From a virus (taxonomy: Duplodnaviria > Caudoviricetes), in IMG/VR virus record IMGVR_UViG_3300044580_000450, positions 1 to 59,819 of that record: a stretch of DNA of 59,819 nt. One strand, 5' to 3'. Under the pieces are notes generated by a model, which saw only the letters and a list, made by a program, of their open reading frames with translations, was not told where the DNA came from and searched no databases. Position numbers and translations under genes: made by a program. Each line of letters begins with the position of its first letter. Position 1 is the stretch's first letter. This document shows positions 37,032-40,254 of this stretch, one piece after another.

Positions 37032-37106
37032 TGTAGCCCCACCGGGAATCGAACCCAGATCTAAGGTTTAGAAGACCTTTGTTACTATCCATTGAACTAT
37101 GAGGCC
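37032..37106 (-). tRNA. tRNA-Arg(TCT)
   Basis: AAGGT-CTTCTAA-ACCTT. Confidence 0.9.
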
Positions 37107-37113
37107 ATGGATT

Positions 37114-37191
37114 TGTGGGAGATGGGGGAGTCGAACCCTCGACCTCTTGCTTGTAAGGCAAGCGCTACTGAACCAACTGAGCTAATCTCCC
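37114..37191 (-). tRNA. tRNA-Val(TAC)
   Basis: CTTGC-CTTACAA-GCAAG. Confidence 0.92.
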
Positions 37192-37322
37192 AATCACGAG
37201 GCCAGGTTTTATTTTCACCTGGAATCTTCTTCTTCAGCTGGGGCATCCGAAGTCGACCGTCATAAACCGGAAAAATTAATTGCCCCAGCAACCAATTCTA
37301 CCTTTTATGATCCACTCTCAAT

Positions 37323-37397
37323 TGAGCGGAAGACGGGGCTCGAACCCGCGGCCTCGACCTTGGCAAGGTCGCGCTCTACCAACTGAGCTACTTCCGC
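37323..37397 (-). tRNA. tRNA-Gly(GCC)
   Basis: CGACC-TTGCCAA-GGTCG. Confidence 0.94.
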
Positions 37398-37400
37398 ATT

Positions 37401-37475
37401 TGTGACCCCGGTGAGACTCGAACTCACGACTCCAACATTAAAAGTGTTGTACTCTACCAACTGAGTTACGAGGTC
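37401..37475 (-). tRNA. tRNA-Lys(TTT)
   Basis: CAACA-CTTTTAA-TGTTG. Confidence 0.92.
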
Positions 37476-37476
37476 T

Positions 37477-37607
37477 TGGTGGCGAGAGCAGGAGTTGAAC
37501 CTACGATCTTCAAGTTATGAGCTTGACGTTTTATCCGATGTATCTCTTCATGTTACTACACCTAAATGAGAAAATTTAAAGAGCATTTTTTTCTAAACTT
37601 TCTCGCC
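37477..37607 (-). tRNA. tRNA-Met(CAT) with a ~55-nt D-loop insertion carrying the repeated RNA module; CCA encoded
   Basis: Acceptor GGCGAGA/TCTCGCC-ACCA; TCAAG-CTCATAA-CTTGA; T-arm intact. Confidence 0.75.
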
Positions 37608-37610
37608 ATT

Positions 37611-37684
37611 TGTAGCGGGAGAGGGATTCGAACCCCCGACCTAAAGGTTATGAGCCTTTCGAGCTGCCTCTGCTCCACCCCGCA
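37611..37684 (-). tRNA. tRNA-Met(CAT), initiator-like 1:72 mismatch
   Basis: TGCGGGGTGGAGCAG start; loop CTCATAA. Confidence 0.85.
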
Positions 37685-37695
37685 ATATTATTATA

Positions 37696-37780
37696 TGTAC
37701 CGTCGGCAGGATTCGAACCTGCGAGACATAAATGCCAAGGGATATGAGCCCTCTCCGATTGTCCACTCTGGCACGACGGT
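37696..37780 (-). tRNA. tRNA with CAT anticodon on a class II (Leu-like) body
   Basis: GAGGG-CTCATAT-CCCTT; long variable arm; A73. Confidence 0.75.
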
Positions 37781-37784
37781 ATTA

Positions 37785-37906
37785 GTAGCGGAAATGGGAG
37801 TCGAACCCAATATCAATAGGTTATGAGCCTATTATGATTCGGTAAACCCGGACAGAAGCATCTATATCTTCCACCCATTGTTACCGCTCCGTTTCACTCT
37901 TCCGCG
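37785..37906 (-). tRNA. tRNA-Met(CAT), initiator-like, with a ~45-nt hairpin in the D-loop
   Basis: ATAGG-CTCATAA-CCTAT; insert CGGTAA..TTACCG. Confidence 0.7.
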
Positions 37907-37910
37907 ATTT

Positions 37911-37986
37911 GTTGCGATAGATGGACTCGAACCATCGACCTCTCCCTTTCGGCGAGAGCGCTCTTTTGCCTCTGAGCTATATCGCA
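37911..37986 (-). tRNA. tRNA-like RNA with an aberrant anticodon loop (GCCGAAAGG), Phe-like or decoy
   Basis: Normal acceptor, D and T arms; no U33. Confidence 0.65.
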
Positions 37987-38045
37987 AACACCATTTTTAT
38001 GTTCGAACTTTATTATGGTGTTAGATCACACCTTCCAGTGTAATT

Positions 38046-38122
38046 TGTGGAAGCGAAGGAAATCGAATCCTCCTCACGTGGATTGCAAGTCGACGTCGCC
38101 AAGCCTTGGTACATGCGCCCCC
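38046..38122 (-). tRNA. tRNA-Ala(TGC), divergent
   Basis: Loop CTTGCAA; G3-U70. Confidence 0.75.
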
Positions 38123-38177
38123 ATTTGAAGTTCGGCTTTTTACAGAGACCGGGATTTCGCCACAAACTGATAAATTA

Positions 38178-38314
38178 AATTGAGAAAATTAACTTGAGTG
38201 TTTTTTCTGTGCAACCGTTACACTTACCCCCTAAGGAAATTTGGCAGGGGGTCCAGGAATTGAACCTGGTCTAGTCGAATGGAAGTCGAAGTAACTCGCT
38301 GTTTCACTACAATT
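38178..38314 (-). ncRNA. Module RNA a: clamp enclosing a circularly permuted Trp-like tRNA domain
   Basis: T-arm and ACCCCCTGCCA come before GGGGGT and the D-arm. Confidence 0.75.
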
Positions 38315-38391
38315 TGTGCCCTCTGTAGAATTCGAATCTACGACCTCTTCCATGTCACGGAAGCGCTCTCGGCCATCTGAGCTAAAAGGGC
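38315..38391 (-). tRNA. tRNA-Val(GAC)
   Basis: CTTCC-GTGACAT-GGAAG. Confidence 0.88.
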
Positions 38392-38481
38392 AAATGGGTA
38401 AGTGGACAAACCTTAGGAATCTGCAGAGGTAGCAGGGTCATATATGTCCTTTAGACTCGAAAAGGAAACTTACCCAGGAAG

Positions 38482-38556
38482 TGCGGGGAGTGAGGGGATC
38501 GAACCCACGACCTGCGGATTAACAGTCCGTCGCTCTACCTACTGAGCTAACTCCCC
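38482..38556 (-). tRNA. tRNA-Asn(GTT)
   Basis: Loop CTGTTAA. Confidence 0.9.
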
Positions 38557-38685
38557 ATTAAAATACTAAATTTCCTATCTGCCAGAATAAACGTGTACTC
38601 ATTTTATTCTGGTCTTACACCACACCTCATAATCACGTTTAGTACAGTAAGCCCGATTATAAGAGGCTCGGTTAATTTAGTATTT

Positions 38686-38773
38686 TGCGTTCCGGGTAGG
38701 ATTCGAACCCACGGTGGCATTTCTGCGTCTGGTTAACGGCCAGGACCTTTCGACCATCTAAGGCAACCGGAAC
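38686..38773 (-). tRNA. tRNA-Asn(GTT) with long variable arm and C33
   Basis: Loop CCGTTAA; variable hairpin GCA-GAAA-TGC. Confidence 0.72.
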
Positions 38774-38775: not shown

Positions 38776-38879
38776 AATCTGAGAAAGGATGAAAAGAGTT
38801 TAATCAAAAGCGACTTTTGGAGCTCTCGACAGGAATCGAACCTGCATTAACCGAAGTAGCTCTTTTCTTACTACAGATT
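38776..38879 (-). ncRNA. Module RNA b: clamp enclosing a T-arm and acceptor remnant
   Basis: GTAGTAAG..GAGCTACTTCG, GCAGGTTCGATTCCTGT, CTCTTTTC..TTTCTC. Confidence 0.7.
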
Positions 38880-38953
38880 GCGGTGTGTACGGGAATCGAA
38901 CCCGTGAGCTCCTGAGTGACAGTCAGGAATGATAACCACTTCACTAACACACC
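38879..38953 (-). tRNA. tRNA-Asp(GTC)
   Basis: CCTGA-CTGTCAC-TCAGG. Confidence 0.9.
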
Positions 38954-39048
38954 AAATTTAATCTATCCCCGTTACTGGCATAACGGCTTCCCAGTGCCAG
39001 CTGAGAGAAACGGTCCTGGCATATCCGCCGGTGTCCGCTCTTGGATTA

Positions 39049-39123
39049 GTTCCCCCCACGGGACTCGAACCCGTAACCCCCTGATTAAGAGTCAGGTACT
39101 CTGCACAATTGAGCTACGGAGGA
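39049..39123 (-). tRNA. tRNA-Lys(CTT)
   Basis: CCTGA-CTCTTAA-TCAGG. Confidence 0.9.
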
Positions 39124-39168
39124 ATAAAAGATGATTTTTTGGTTAACGGAGGAAATCAACAAAACCAC

Positions 39169-39245
39169 TGGTGGACCGTAAGGGAGTCGAACCCTTGGCC
39201 TCCTGCTTGCAAGGCAGGCGCTCTAGCCATCTGAGCTAACAGCCC
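39169..39245 (-). tRNA. tRNA-Ala(TGC), CCA encoded
   Basis: CCTGC-CTTGCAA-GCAGG; G3-U70. Confidence 0.94.
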
Positions 39246-39310
39246 ATATACTTGACTCCATGCCATTTCATGGGTATTAAAACCGCCAAATTTGGGGGTA
39301 TGTCAAGCAT

Positions 39311-39385
39311 TGCAGGGGCACCAGGACTCGAACCCGGAGTCAGCGGTTTTGGAGACCGTTATGTTACCAATTACACCATACCCCT
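39311..39385 (-). tRNA. tRNA-Trp(CCA)
   Basis: Loop CTCCAAA. Confidence 0.9.
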
Positions 39386-39388
39386 ATT

Positions 39389-39477
39389 TGCGGTCCCAAA
39401 GGGATTCGAACCCTCCTGTCAGATTTCTCTGTTCCGGGGTGACAACCCGGCGGCCACGCCAAGCAGCCCCTGAGACC
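39389..39477 (-). tRNA. tRNA-Asp(GTC) with long variable arm
   Basis: CCGGG-TTGTCAC-CCCGG; variable hairpin CAGA-GAAA-TCTG. Confidence 0.75.
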
Positions 39478-39480
39478 ATT

Positions 39481-39590
39481 TAAGAGAGAAAATCGGTAGG
39501 GAACGAGGCGGATTTGAACCGCGGACATTGTTTAACAGACAATTACTGAACCATTCAGTGCGAAGTAACCCTGATCCATTACTACTCTTA
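39481..39590 (-). ncRNA. Module RNA c: clamp replacing the acceptor stem of an Asn-like D/anticodon/T core
   Basis: ATTGT-CTGTTAA-ACAAT and GCGG-TTCAAAT-CCGC inside the clamp. Confidence 0.75.
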
Positions 39591-39663
39591 GAGCGGATGA
39601 TGAGAATCGAACTCACATTTCCAGCTTGGAAGGCTGGAACACTAGCCATTGTGCTACACCCGC
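39591..39663 (-). tRNA. tRNA-Gly(TCC)
   Basis: CCAGC-CTTCCAA-GCTGG. Confidence 0.9.
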
Positions 39664-39700
39664 AAATACACTTCCTTCCAGAGTCTAGTGCGAACTAAGT

Positions 39701-39790
39701 CGTCCTCCCGCTGGGACTCGAACCCAGAACCTTCCGCTTAAAAGGCGGAAGCTCTCGCCCGAAGGCTCGCCAATTAGAGCTACGGGAGGA
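39701..39790 (-). tRNA. tRNA-Lys(TTT) with a UUCG mini-hairpin in the D-loop
   Basis: Loop CTTTTAA; GCC-TTCG-GGC insert. Confidence 0.82.
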
Positions 39791-39800
39791 ATTGCCAGCA

Positions 39801-39812
39801 TGTCAAAGAACA
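39801..39812 (-). promoter_or_regulatory. boxA-like antitermination site
   Basis: TGTTCTTTGACA. Confidence 0.6.
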
Positions 39813-39832
39813 TGATCTTTTCAGATCGGTGT

Positions 39833-39917
39833 TGTGGGGGAGATCGGGATCGAACCGATGACCTCTGGATTTTCAGTCCAGCGCTCTACGCGATTGCTCC
39901 ATCTGAGCTACTCCCCC
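39833..39917 (-). tRNA. tRNA-Phe(GAA) with enlarged D-loop
   Basis: CTGGA-CTGAAAA-TCCAG. Confidence 0.85.
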
Positions 39918-39924
39918 AAATTGG

Positions 39925-39999
39925 TGTGGTAAGAGGCAGGATCGAACTGCCGACACATGGATTTTCAGTCCATTGCTCTACCAACTGAGCTACCTCACC
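39925..39999 (-). tRNA. tRNA-Phe(GAA)
   Basis: ATGGA-CTGAAAA-TCCAT. Confidence 0.94.
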
Positions 40000-40015
40000 A
40001 AATATTTTAAAGAAC

Positions 40016-40051
40016 AAAAAAAGCGGGAATTTCTTTTGAAGTTCCCGCTTT
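40016..40051 (-). terminator. Attenuator terminator upstream of the large tRNA operon
   Basis: AAGCGGGAA..TTCCCGC hairpin followed by T7. Confidence 0.85.
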
Positions 40052-40077
40052 ATATAAAGTCCTAACTATTTCTAGTC

Positions 40078-40179
40078 TTACTCTACTCTTTCAAGCGGGC
40101 AACTTCCTCCGTCTTTATCGGCTGCTCTATTAAAGCCAAACCAATTCACGAAATTATCCATATTTCCACGCCTTTTCAT
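40078..40179 (-). CDS. Leader peptide MKRRGNMDNFVNWFGFNRAADKDGGSCPLERVE
   Basis: Hand-translated; codons 1-25 use only amino acids whose tRNAs lie downstream. Confidence 0.8.
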   Translation of the reverse strand: MKRRGNMDNFVNWFGFNRAADKDGGSCPLERVE

Positions 40180-40254
40180 TGAAAGTAGTATTGATTAAGT
40201 TTCTCTATATATTACTGCAAATATCAAAAAAGTTTTAACTTATTGTAAAAAATT

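Follow-up and report, generated by a model that had tools for sequence, protein, structure and literature searches.

The stretch of DNA analysed here, a viral contig of 59,819 nucleotides (nt) estimated at 15% of its genome (IMG/VR record IMGVR_UViG_3300044580_000450; hereafter the window), carries on its minus strand an array of transfer RNA (tRNA) genes preceded by a short open reading frame (ORF) and an intrinsic terminator. This leader, referred to as leader 2, is the subject of the present work; another leader, leader 1, stands before a separate tRNA array on the same strand. The window encodes a T4-type major capsid protein and a prohead protease, and its closest named relatives are the Prevotella Lak megaphages (~540 kb), with 48% identity in the major capsid protein. 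Its probable host is a member of the Bacteroidota without a Shine-Dalgarno sequence.

The leader reading frame and the tRNA genes behind it

The 33-codon ORF described in a first-pass annotation of the window is present on the minus strand with the reading given in Table 1, placed after the promoter-like motifs P1 and P2 and before the intrinsic terminator and the tRNA-Phe gene that starts at 39999. Between 28137 and 39999 ARAGORN reported 33 tRNA genes, every one of them on the minus strand, and Rfam returned 29 tRNA matches in 27000-41000. Three tRNA identities were corrected by manual reading of the sequence, alongside the output of both programs. The ARAGORN call Leu(tag)/Ser(aga) at 39917-39834 was rejected, the gene forming a regular cloverleaf with the anticodon loop CUGAAAA and an 18-nt D-loop that reads as Phe(GAA); the call depended on orientation (Ser(aga) on the other orientation, Leu(tag) otherwise), and relatives carry an ordinary Phe(gaa) at this position. 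At 39789-39702, the gene has an insert in its D-loop and is read as Lys(UUU) (Rfam, 32.1 bits). The call Ser(cga) at 37986-37911 was also set aside, as the anticodon stem closes a 9-nt loop, GCCGAAAGG, that offers no normal anticodon; the tRNA body is good (Rfam tRNA, 52 bits) and conserved in relative L068, and the loop may form a GAAA-capped extension. After correction, the decodable tRNAs from 39999 to 32639 are those for Phe, Lys, Gly, Asp, Trp, Ala, Asn, Val, Met and Arg. The distal ones among them (32639-35666) are interspersed with protein-coding ORFs, and neither a leader nor a terminator is dedicated to them.

With these identities, the claim that the first 25 codons of the ORF use exactly the ten amino acids of the downstream tRNAs holds, all ten being used. 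The resulting run of 25 residues is the longest of its kind in the six frames of all 59,819 bases, the next reaching 14; given a set frequency of 0.51 in the long ORFs of the window, the probability of 24 consecutive codons from the set is ~1e-7. The agreement extends to anticodons: under standard wobble, 24 of the 25 sensing codons can be decoded by tRNAs situated between leader 2 and the next leader, and 13 of the 17 distinct anticodons are touched. The three Arg codons of the leader (AGG, CGT and AGA) correspond to three different Arg tRNAs, and the two that had been proposed as partners of AGG and CGT exist, as Arg(cct) at 35594-35666 and Arg(acg) at 33606-33680. The observation is real, far beyond chance and, as detailed below, conserved.

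The terminator hairpin, AAGCGGGAACTTC-AAAA-GAAATTCCCGCTT (40050-40021), is GC-rich, is followed by T7 and lies 16 nt before tRNA-Phe; folded alone it reaches -16.9 kcal/mol, and it is the consensus helix found by RNAalifold. Within the ORF, segment 2 is complementary to the terminator 5' arm with one bulge, as had been noticed at first sight. RNAduplex gave -20.4 kcal/mol for ORF nt 73-88 against this arm, compared with a mean of -8.2 for shuffled ORFs, none of 500 being as good, and the minimum-energy fold of the naked window RNA holds this antiterminator. A scan with sigma-70 and terminator consensus patterns returned counts no higher than in shuffles and missed both leader terminators, that of leader 2 because its hairpin has an internal mismatch.

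Homology searches returned no known family for the element. An Rfam cmscan of 36900-40400 at E<=1 found no T-box and no Trp, His, Leu, Thr or Phe leader, only tRNA-type and weak chance matches, and within 40010-40335 nothing except SodB_thermometer (24.9 bits) on the opposite strand. Four leader peptides matched no Pfam family at E<=10 other than EF-hand_5 (E=0.22, L012 peptide) and nothing in NCBIfam at the same threshold.

Upstream of the leader, P1 belongs to a motif class with the consensus ATATTTTTTTAT(n)GAA(n)TTTTTTGTATATTTG, found upstream of genes at seven minus-strand sites (53895, 50436, 44285, 40375, 17397, 16749 and 11942), and may be of the Bacteroidota promoter type. The ATATATA(A/G)A motif occurs at 40213, 34061, 32628, 29754, 28052 and 26765, the copy at 29754-29745 preceding leader 1. 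For the structured RNA between P1 and the leader, RNAalifold on nine sequences gave 24 pairs, four of them with compensatory changes, and Rfam gave no match at E<=1; it is absent from relative L089, where the leader directly follows an ORF, and could represent either an independent small RNA or a first terminator. The motif TTACTTCG occurs five times in the window against 1.36 expected, a count reached in none of 100 shuffles; three of the five are on the tRNA strand within the leader and array region (40305-40312, 39561-39568 and 38287-38294), in similar GTAGTAA...TTACTTCG contexts.

Parts of the stretch are contained in 24 sequencing runs, 16 of them recorded as RNA; four were examined, all as contigs. 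Single contigs cover the leader, the terminator and tRNA-Phe (X3, 39953-40372; X4, 39952-40313; X1, 38684-41300), with the limit that RNA-library contigs show neither ends, strand nor level and cannot prove transcription, DNA carry-over being possible. The stop shared by two contigs (X4 and X6) at 40313, inside the TTACTTCG motif, is probably an assembly break.

Table 1. Features of the leader 2 region, of leader 1 and of neighbouring genes in the window
Feature	Position	Strand	Description
P1 promoter-like site	40345-40375	-	TTTG ... TAtaTTTG; regex scan; conserved in relatives
Conserved structured RNA	40247-40335	-	~89 nt; between P1 and leader; ends in U-run
P2 region	40203-40226	-	GATATTTG box, then TAATATATAGAG; putative promoter activity
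Leader ORF (leader 2)	40179-40078	-	33 codons and TAA; peptide MKRRGNMDNFVNWFGFNRAADKDGGSCPLERVE
Sensing stretch	40105-40179	-	Codons 1-25; residues only M, K, R, G, N, D, F, V, W, A
Possible segment 1	40167-40172	-	GGCGUG, codons 3-4; could pair with CCCGCU core of segment 2; RNAalifold
Hairpin within sensing stretch	40107-40153	-	RNAalifold consensus; one-sided changes only
Segment 2, antiterminator strand	40106-40093	-	GAAGTTGCCCGCTT; within ORF codons 25-30
Intrinsic terminator	40050-40016	-	5' arm 40050-40038, loop 40037-40034, 3' arm 40033-40021, T-run to 40016
tRNA array behind leader 2	37033-39999	-	Phe x2, Lys x3, Gly x2, Asp x2, Trp, Ala x2, Asn x2, Val x2, Met(CAT) x3, Arg(tct), one tRNA-like RNA without normal anticodon loop
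Further same-strand tRNAs	32639-35666	-	Arg(cct), Arg(acg), Gly(ccc), Gly(tcc), Arg(tcg); before next leader
Leader 1 and terminator	29734-29592	-	ORF 29734-29654, MRRHSIHTISISTSSSDQAGLLVTQN; terminator 29621-29592; before array 29576-28137
Auxiliary gene near array	41663-42835	-	Lysine-2,3-aminomutase-like radical SAM protein
Auxiliary gene near array	47394-49364	-	TonB-dependent receptor with plug domain
Auxiliary gene near array	50448-51683	-	Nicotinate phosphoribosyltransferase
Auxiliary gene near array	55284-56159	-	NAD synthase

Several tRNA genes of the window are unusual in form. Greatly enlarged D-loops (~18-22 nt) are found in tRNA-Phe(GAA) at 39834-39917 and tRNA-Lys(UUU) at 39702-39789, one of them including a UUCG hairpin; ARAGORN labelled both genes wrongly, as Leu or Ser. 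Long variable arms of the class II kind characterise three tRNAs of 84-88 nt on the minus strand, namely Asp(GTC) at 39390-39477, Asn(GTT) at 38687-38773 and a CAT tRNA at 37697-37780; the Asp and Asn forms carry G at the discriminator position, as in Ser tRNAs, and similar long forms occur in relatives L068 and L074. A further type, tRNA-like genes whose D-arm is weak or missing and in which a conserved insert with GTAATTGGA follows the anticodon arm, is present in the window (~28050-28130) and in L014 at 10250-10615 (G002), and was missed by ARAGORN at default settings.

Leader 2 in related phages and its counterpart, leader 1

Relatives were collected by means of the 162-residue protein encoded upstream of leader 2 (40884-40396), which has homologues at 49-96% identity, by a degenerate peptide-core pattern and by a promoter-plus-start pattern. 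The collection comprises 15 distinct leader 2 DNA sequences, representing nine peptide variants, from uncultured Lak-like megaphage contigs. In the metagenome scan with the peptide-core pattern, 17 of 53 stretches were true leaders and 36 were unrelated frames; a DNA search of 39900-41300 against a phage collection matched only tRNA-Phe, and the window protein P0003 had no match in the same collection.

All true leaders share one order of elements: promoter-like motifs, an ORF of 33-36 codons, TAA, a spacer, a GC hairpin with its T-run, and tRNAs. This architecture is kept in relatives whose flanking protein is only ~50% identical. Leader DNA is 84-88% identical to that of distant relatives, against 75-78% for the flanking gene, and 98-100% identical to that of close relatives, against 88.5%. 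All four indels in the ORF are multiples of three, the stop is always TAA, and one lineage uses GTG for ATG.

The codon panel itself changes in a restricted manner. In the sensing columns (alignment A3), ten of the 11 replacement or insertion events stay within the ten-residue set (G/V, D/V/M, N/D several times, R/N, G/D, G/R and an inserted D); as a null, 42% of the single-nucleotide non-synonymous neighbours of the window's codons would do so, giving a binomial P of ~1e-3. Replacements hit codons present more than once (AAA, GGA, GAT, AAT), while the single-copy codons TGG, GGC, GCA and GTG are invariant and AGG, CGT and AGA are altered only in L074. The distant relative G002 keeps these three Arg codons, and its array holds three unusual tRNAs, missed by ARAGORN, with the loops TCT, CCT and ACG (manual reading; Rfam 27.6-38.7 bits). 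Six of the seven synonymous differences are third-position C/T exchanges that keep the same tRNA, and none is an A/G exchange.

Peptide conservation is lost after codon 25 or 26 (SCPLERVE, YGFPLDGGK, YGFPLRWRGI, YGFPLGGGR, SISRGGTTV, YGCPLRWRGI). Conservation of the antiterminator in this part was judged by per-sequence duplexes, since bulges shift the register between variants and no single column structure fits them. The best duplex between ORF and terminator arm fell at codons ~25-31 in all 12 distinct variants (-15.2 to -22.5 kcal/mol; 0-1 of 500 shuffles as good), and that of L089 reached -17.1 kcal/mol (4 of 500). The distal helix changes on both strands and stays complementary (GAAGUU:AACUUC, GGUU:AACC, GGAUU:GAUC, GGAU:AUCC, GGAGG:CCUC). 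The geometry is also conserved: 14-17 nt separate the end of the segment 2 core from the stop codon, and 24-38 nt separate the stop codon from segment 3, distances that fit a ribosome covering segment 2 yet unable to reach the terminator.

Leader 1 is organised in the same way ahead of an array of Ser, His, Thr and Ile tRNAs. Its peptide begins MRRHSIHTISISTSSS and contains the longest run of H, S, I and T in the six frames of the window (13; next 7); all 13 sensing codons match its own array, and all nine anticodons are touched. Its ORF-terminator duplex reaches -16.0 kcal/mol, with an equally good value in 6 of 500 shuffles, and the leader is conserved in G001, G002 and L144. The first-pass annotation had presented leader 2 as a second, independent attenuator whose sequence is unrelated to that of the first. 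A separate leader is indeed there; full unrelatedness is contradicted by the start AUGARAAGGC shared by both ORFs (first ten or eleven bases), each behind ATATATA(G/A)A, and independence survives only in part, since these shared elements suggest that the two leaders are probably diverged duplicates, not unrelated inventions.

The same annotation had proposed that the tRNAs are sorted into separately sensed regulons. Relatives show the same division into two regulons whose amino-acid sets do not overlap, and the arrays downstream of leader 2 retain the same amino-acid set there with the exceptions of L044 and L089; the proposal stands in this form, the sorting being not absolute, as a tRNA-His in L044 illustrates (see below). 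A third leader was sought in viral contigs with the P2 motif followed by ATGAVAAGG, a pattern found in 75 stretches. Among the 67 newly obtained loci examined (L086-L152), a short ORF with tRNAs no more than 400 nt away was seen in four, namely one new leader 2 variant and three leader 1 variants, and no leader for Leu, Pro, Glu, Gln, Cys or Tyr was present.

Relatives also carry an isolated tRNA with the anticodon CTA, of the amber suppressor type, with a GC hairpin immediately before it (L077, 543-618, G001; L078, 485-561, G002). Together with a TCA-anticodon tRNA inside the array of one relative, it suggests stop-codon recoding, a trait known from Lak phages.

A putative ribosome-mediated attenuator and its alternatives

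We interpret leader 2 as a ribosome-mediated transcription attenuator of the leader-peptide (trp/his) type that would control the phage tRNA operon by sensing tRNA supply, and assign this reading a probability of roughly 0.7. At the sequence level, leader 2 has the attenuator features that could be checked clearly: a short ORF, a codon composition that matches the downstream tRNAs, an intrinsic terminator and an alternative pairing of the terminator arm, all of them conserved. Transcription from P2 and/or P1 would enter the 33-codon ORF, the first 25 codons of which would form a panel sampling the tRNAs of the downstream genes. When the pool is short, any limiting aminoacyl-tRNA would cause the ribosome to lag or stall in the panel, leaving segment 2 free to pair with the terminator 5' arm as the antiterminator, and RNA polymerase would read through into the tRNA genes. 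When the pool is sufficient, the ribosome would stand at codons 25-33 and TAA while the polymerase makes segments 3 and 4; with segment 2 occupied, the terminator hairpin would form and transcription would end at ~40016. The net effect would be negative feedback on the supply of exactly this tRNA set, and leader 1, as a diverged second copy, would act likewise on the Ser/His/Thr/Ile array. Shortage might arise in a host without the tRNA concerned, from decay of host tRNAs during infection, or from cleavage by a host anticodon nuclease. We infer from the comparison of sequences that the leader is translated, that the switch runs in this direction and with these dynamics, that the promoters are used, and that tRNA abundance rather than charging is the signal. 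We lean further towards the broader view of a megaphage tRNA homeostat, in which each tRNA block would be gated by a translated codon checklist and transcribed only when one of its tRNAs becomes limiting.

Ribosome occupancy was modelled by masking the mRNA around the A-site, with equilibrium folding of 14 sequences. In nine of these, the antiterminator gave way to the terminator once the A-site had moved beyond ~codon 23. For the window with a ribosome at the stop codon, the antiterminator was displaced only with an upstream footprint of 18 nt. Because the equilibrium model is only partly supportive, the switch in leader 2 would have to be kinetic, as in classical attenuators. The candidate 1:2 helix between GGCGUG and the core of segment 2 is weak (five pairs, no compensatory changes in RNAalifold), and the hairpin at 40153-40107 is a candidate pause or timing hairpin.

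A number of observations weigh against the attenuator. As regards folding, the terminator was favoured whatever the position of the ribosome in the other five of the 14 sequences (L012, L035, L066, L037 and L069), the antiterminator remained in the minimum-energy fold of the window when a ribosome at the stop codon was given a 15-nt upstream footprint, and the RNAalifold consensus of the leader has no pairs with two-sided changes. As regards the panel, the sensing stretch lacks codons for four of the 17 anticodons (ccc, ctt, gac and tcg), the codon GCC is unread by the array's Ala(tgc) under strict wobble, and codons 21-25 lie too near segment 2 for a signal of the proposed direction. In five of the nine peptide variants, position 2 is Thr (ACA), without a cognate phage tRNA, this K2T replacement falling outside the set, and residue order in the sensing stretch is conserved more strongly than composition by itself demands. 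The arrays of relatives add two further points: L044, a close relative with a leader identical to that of the window and without a His codon, carries a regular tRNA-His(gtg) (7988-8062, reverse strand) between Met and Arg tRNAs of the regulon behind leader 2, a gene absent from this regulon in the window, and the array of L089 holds a tRNA with the anticodon tca. Finally, Lak megaphages resemble the window phage as giant phages of Bacteroidota with a T4-like capsid and ~30 tRNA genes in arrays, and the main array of Lak-A1, which opens with tRNA-Trp, stands behind a 37-codon ORF (MRQFNNIYKNN...) and a strong hairpin followed by a T-run (L084, 981-1190, reverse strand); this ORF has no complement to the arm of that terminator (-6.9 kcal/mol, with equally good values in 130 of 500 shuffles), and its composition match is not significant (30 of 36 residues, P=0.076).

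An unlikely, if still serious, alternative is that the same attenuator reports amino-acid or aminoacylation status, or overall translation capacity, and is a timer of the infection stage, not a homeostat for these tRNAs, the array being switched on as host translation deteriorates. As established for the trp and his attenuators, a missing and an uncharged tRNA are indistinguishable to a stalled ribosome; two promoter-like motifs of different types before the leader would fit stage-specific use, and the four unsampled anticodons point the same way. A general timer would, however, have no need of an anticodon-level match in two leaders with disjoint sets, nor does it account for substitutions that remain inside the set.

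Considerably less probable is a switch that works at the RNA level without translation, in which a protein or a directly bound tRNA, as in a T-box, selects between antiterminator and terminator and the ORF is incidental. The high conservation of the leader nucleotide sequence, the conserved internal hairpin and the possible 1:2 pairing would suit such a switch. The amino-acid match, however, belongs to the reading frame only, the frame has been kept through the four indels and the change from ATG to GTG, synonymous changes are biased to wobble positions read by the same tRNA, and neither a T-box nor any other such Rfam family was matched in 36900-40400 at E<=1.

We consider it just as improbable that translation acts by another route (Rho-dependent polarity, RNase processing or coupling to embedded ORFs), with the hairpin as a constitutive partial terminator. 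The protein-coding ORFs interspersed with the tRNAs further down and the five variants in which the terminator is favoured at equilibrium speak for it, whereas it leaves unexplained why a co-varying complement of the terminator arm is conserved inside the ORF and why its spacing of 14-17 nt to the stop codon is kept. Hardly credible, finally, is a small functional peptide, or a chance ORF beside the ordinary terminator of the upstream unit, with a coincidental tRNA-set match: the residue order is strongly conserved and the case for regulation is built on sequence comparison, but chance is excluded by the six-frame scan (25 against 14) and by leader 1 (13 against 7; nine of nine anticodons), the C-terminal third is not conserved as a peptide while its pairing with the terminator is, and the only peptide family hit in Pfam or NCBIfam at E<=10 is the EF-hand_5 match of the L012 peptide at E=0.22.

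Comparison with known attenuators

Transfer RNA genes are generally viewed as controlled by promoters, with feedback that is only global, and we know of essentially no account of how large phage tRNA repertoires are regulated. No description of a leader ORF controlling tRNA genes was found in the literature that was searched, the older subscription literature lying outside its scope. A precedent considered for Escherichia coli, an attenuator-like leader of tRNA-Phe genes, was discarded, the spacers upstream of pheV and pheU in strain K-12 (~105 nt) holding no leader ORF. To our knowledge, and within these searches, leader 2 would place a known mechanism in charge of tRNA genes, for which control of this kind has not been reported. 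If the attenuator reading is correct, this would be the first leader-peptide attenuation of tRNA genes, with a tRNA repertoire split into separately sensed regulons. A cis-acting element that senses the tRNA pool by way of translation and adjusts tRNA transcription in return would bring a new regulatory logic to these genes, extending classical attenuation from the supply of metabolites to the supply of the translation apparatus itself; it would reveal directly which tRNAs the phage treats as limiting, and the element could serve as a compact, programmable sensor of specific tRNA availability.

The textbook leader-peptide attenuators are trpL, hisL, pheL and leuL, which govern amino-acid biosynthetic operons. 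Leader 2 resembles them in having a short ORF between promoter and intrinsic terminator in which the regulatory codons are concentrated, an antiterminator that would compete with the terminator according to ribosome position, and a stop codon near segment 2. It differs in regulating, as proposed, tRNA genes and not enzymes, and in codons that span ten amino acids and at least 13 anticodons, not a run of a single residue. Segment 2 lies inside the ORF in the phage leader and just after the stop in trp; the 1:2 element is weak or uncertain; and the system is borne by a phage whose probable Bacteroidota host lacks a Shine-Dalgarno sequence.

Closer in breadth are the multivalent attenuators, such as the thr leader (Thr and Ile) and the ilvGMEDA and ilvBN leaders (Ile, Val and Leu), where several aminoacyl-tRNAs are likewise sampled by one leader and any shortage leads to read-through. 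These monitor two or three amino acids linked by a pathway, whereas the set of the phage leader is defined by the downstream tRNA genes, and, unlike them, the phage has a second leader with a complementary set. Closer in purpose is the pheM leader, which attenuates the aminoacyl-tRNA synthetase operon pheST. Here too a component of translation is controlled through stalling at codons of its own cognate tRNA; pheST yields a synthetase, with a single amino acid as the signal, and the product of the phage operon would be the tRNAs themselves. T-box riboswitches also read tRNA status by codon-anticodon recognition and a choice between terminator and antiterminator, but they bind one uncharged tRNA directly through a conserved fold, without a ribosome, whereas no such fold was detected in leader 2, which bears evidence of a translated frame. 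Leader 2 stands apart from known attenuators in what it would regulate (tRNA genes), in the range of codons it samples and in sharing the tRNA repertoire with a second leader; with ten amino acids and at least 13 tRNA species sampled by one leader, it would be the broadest multivalent attenuator known.

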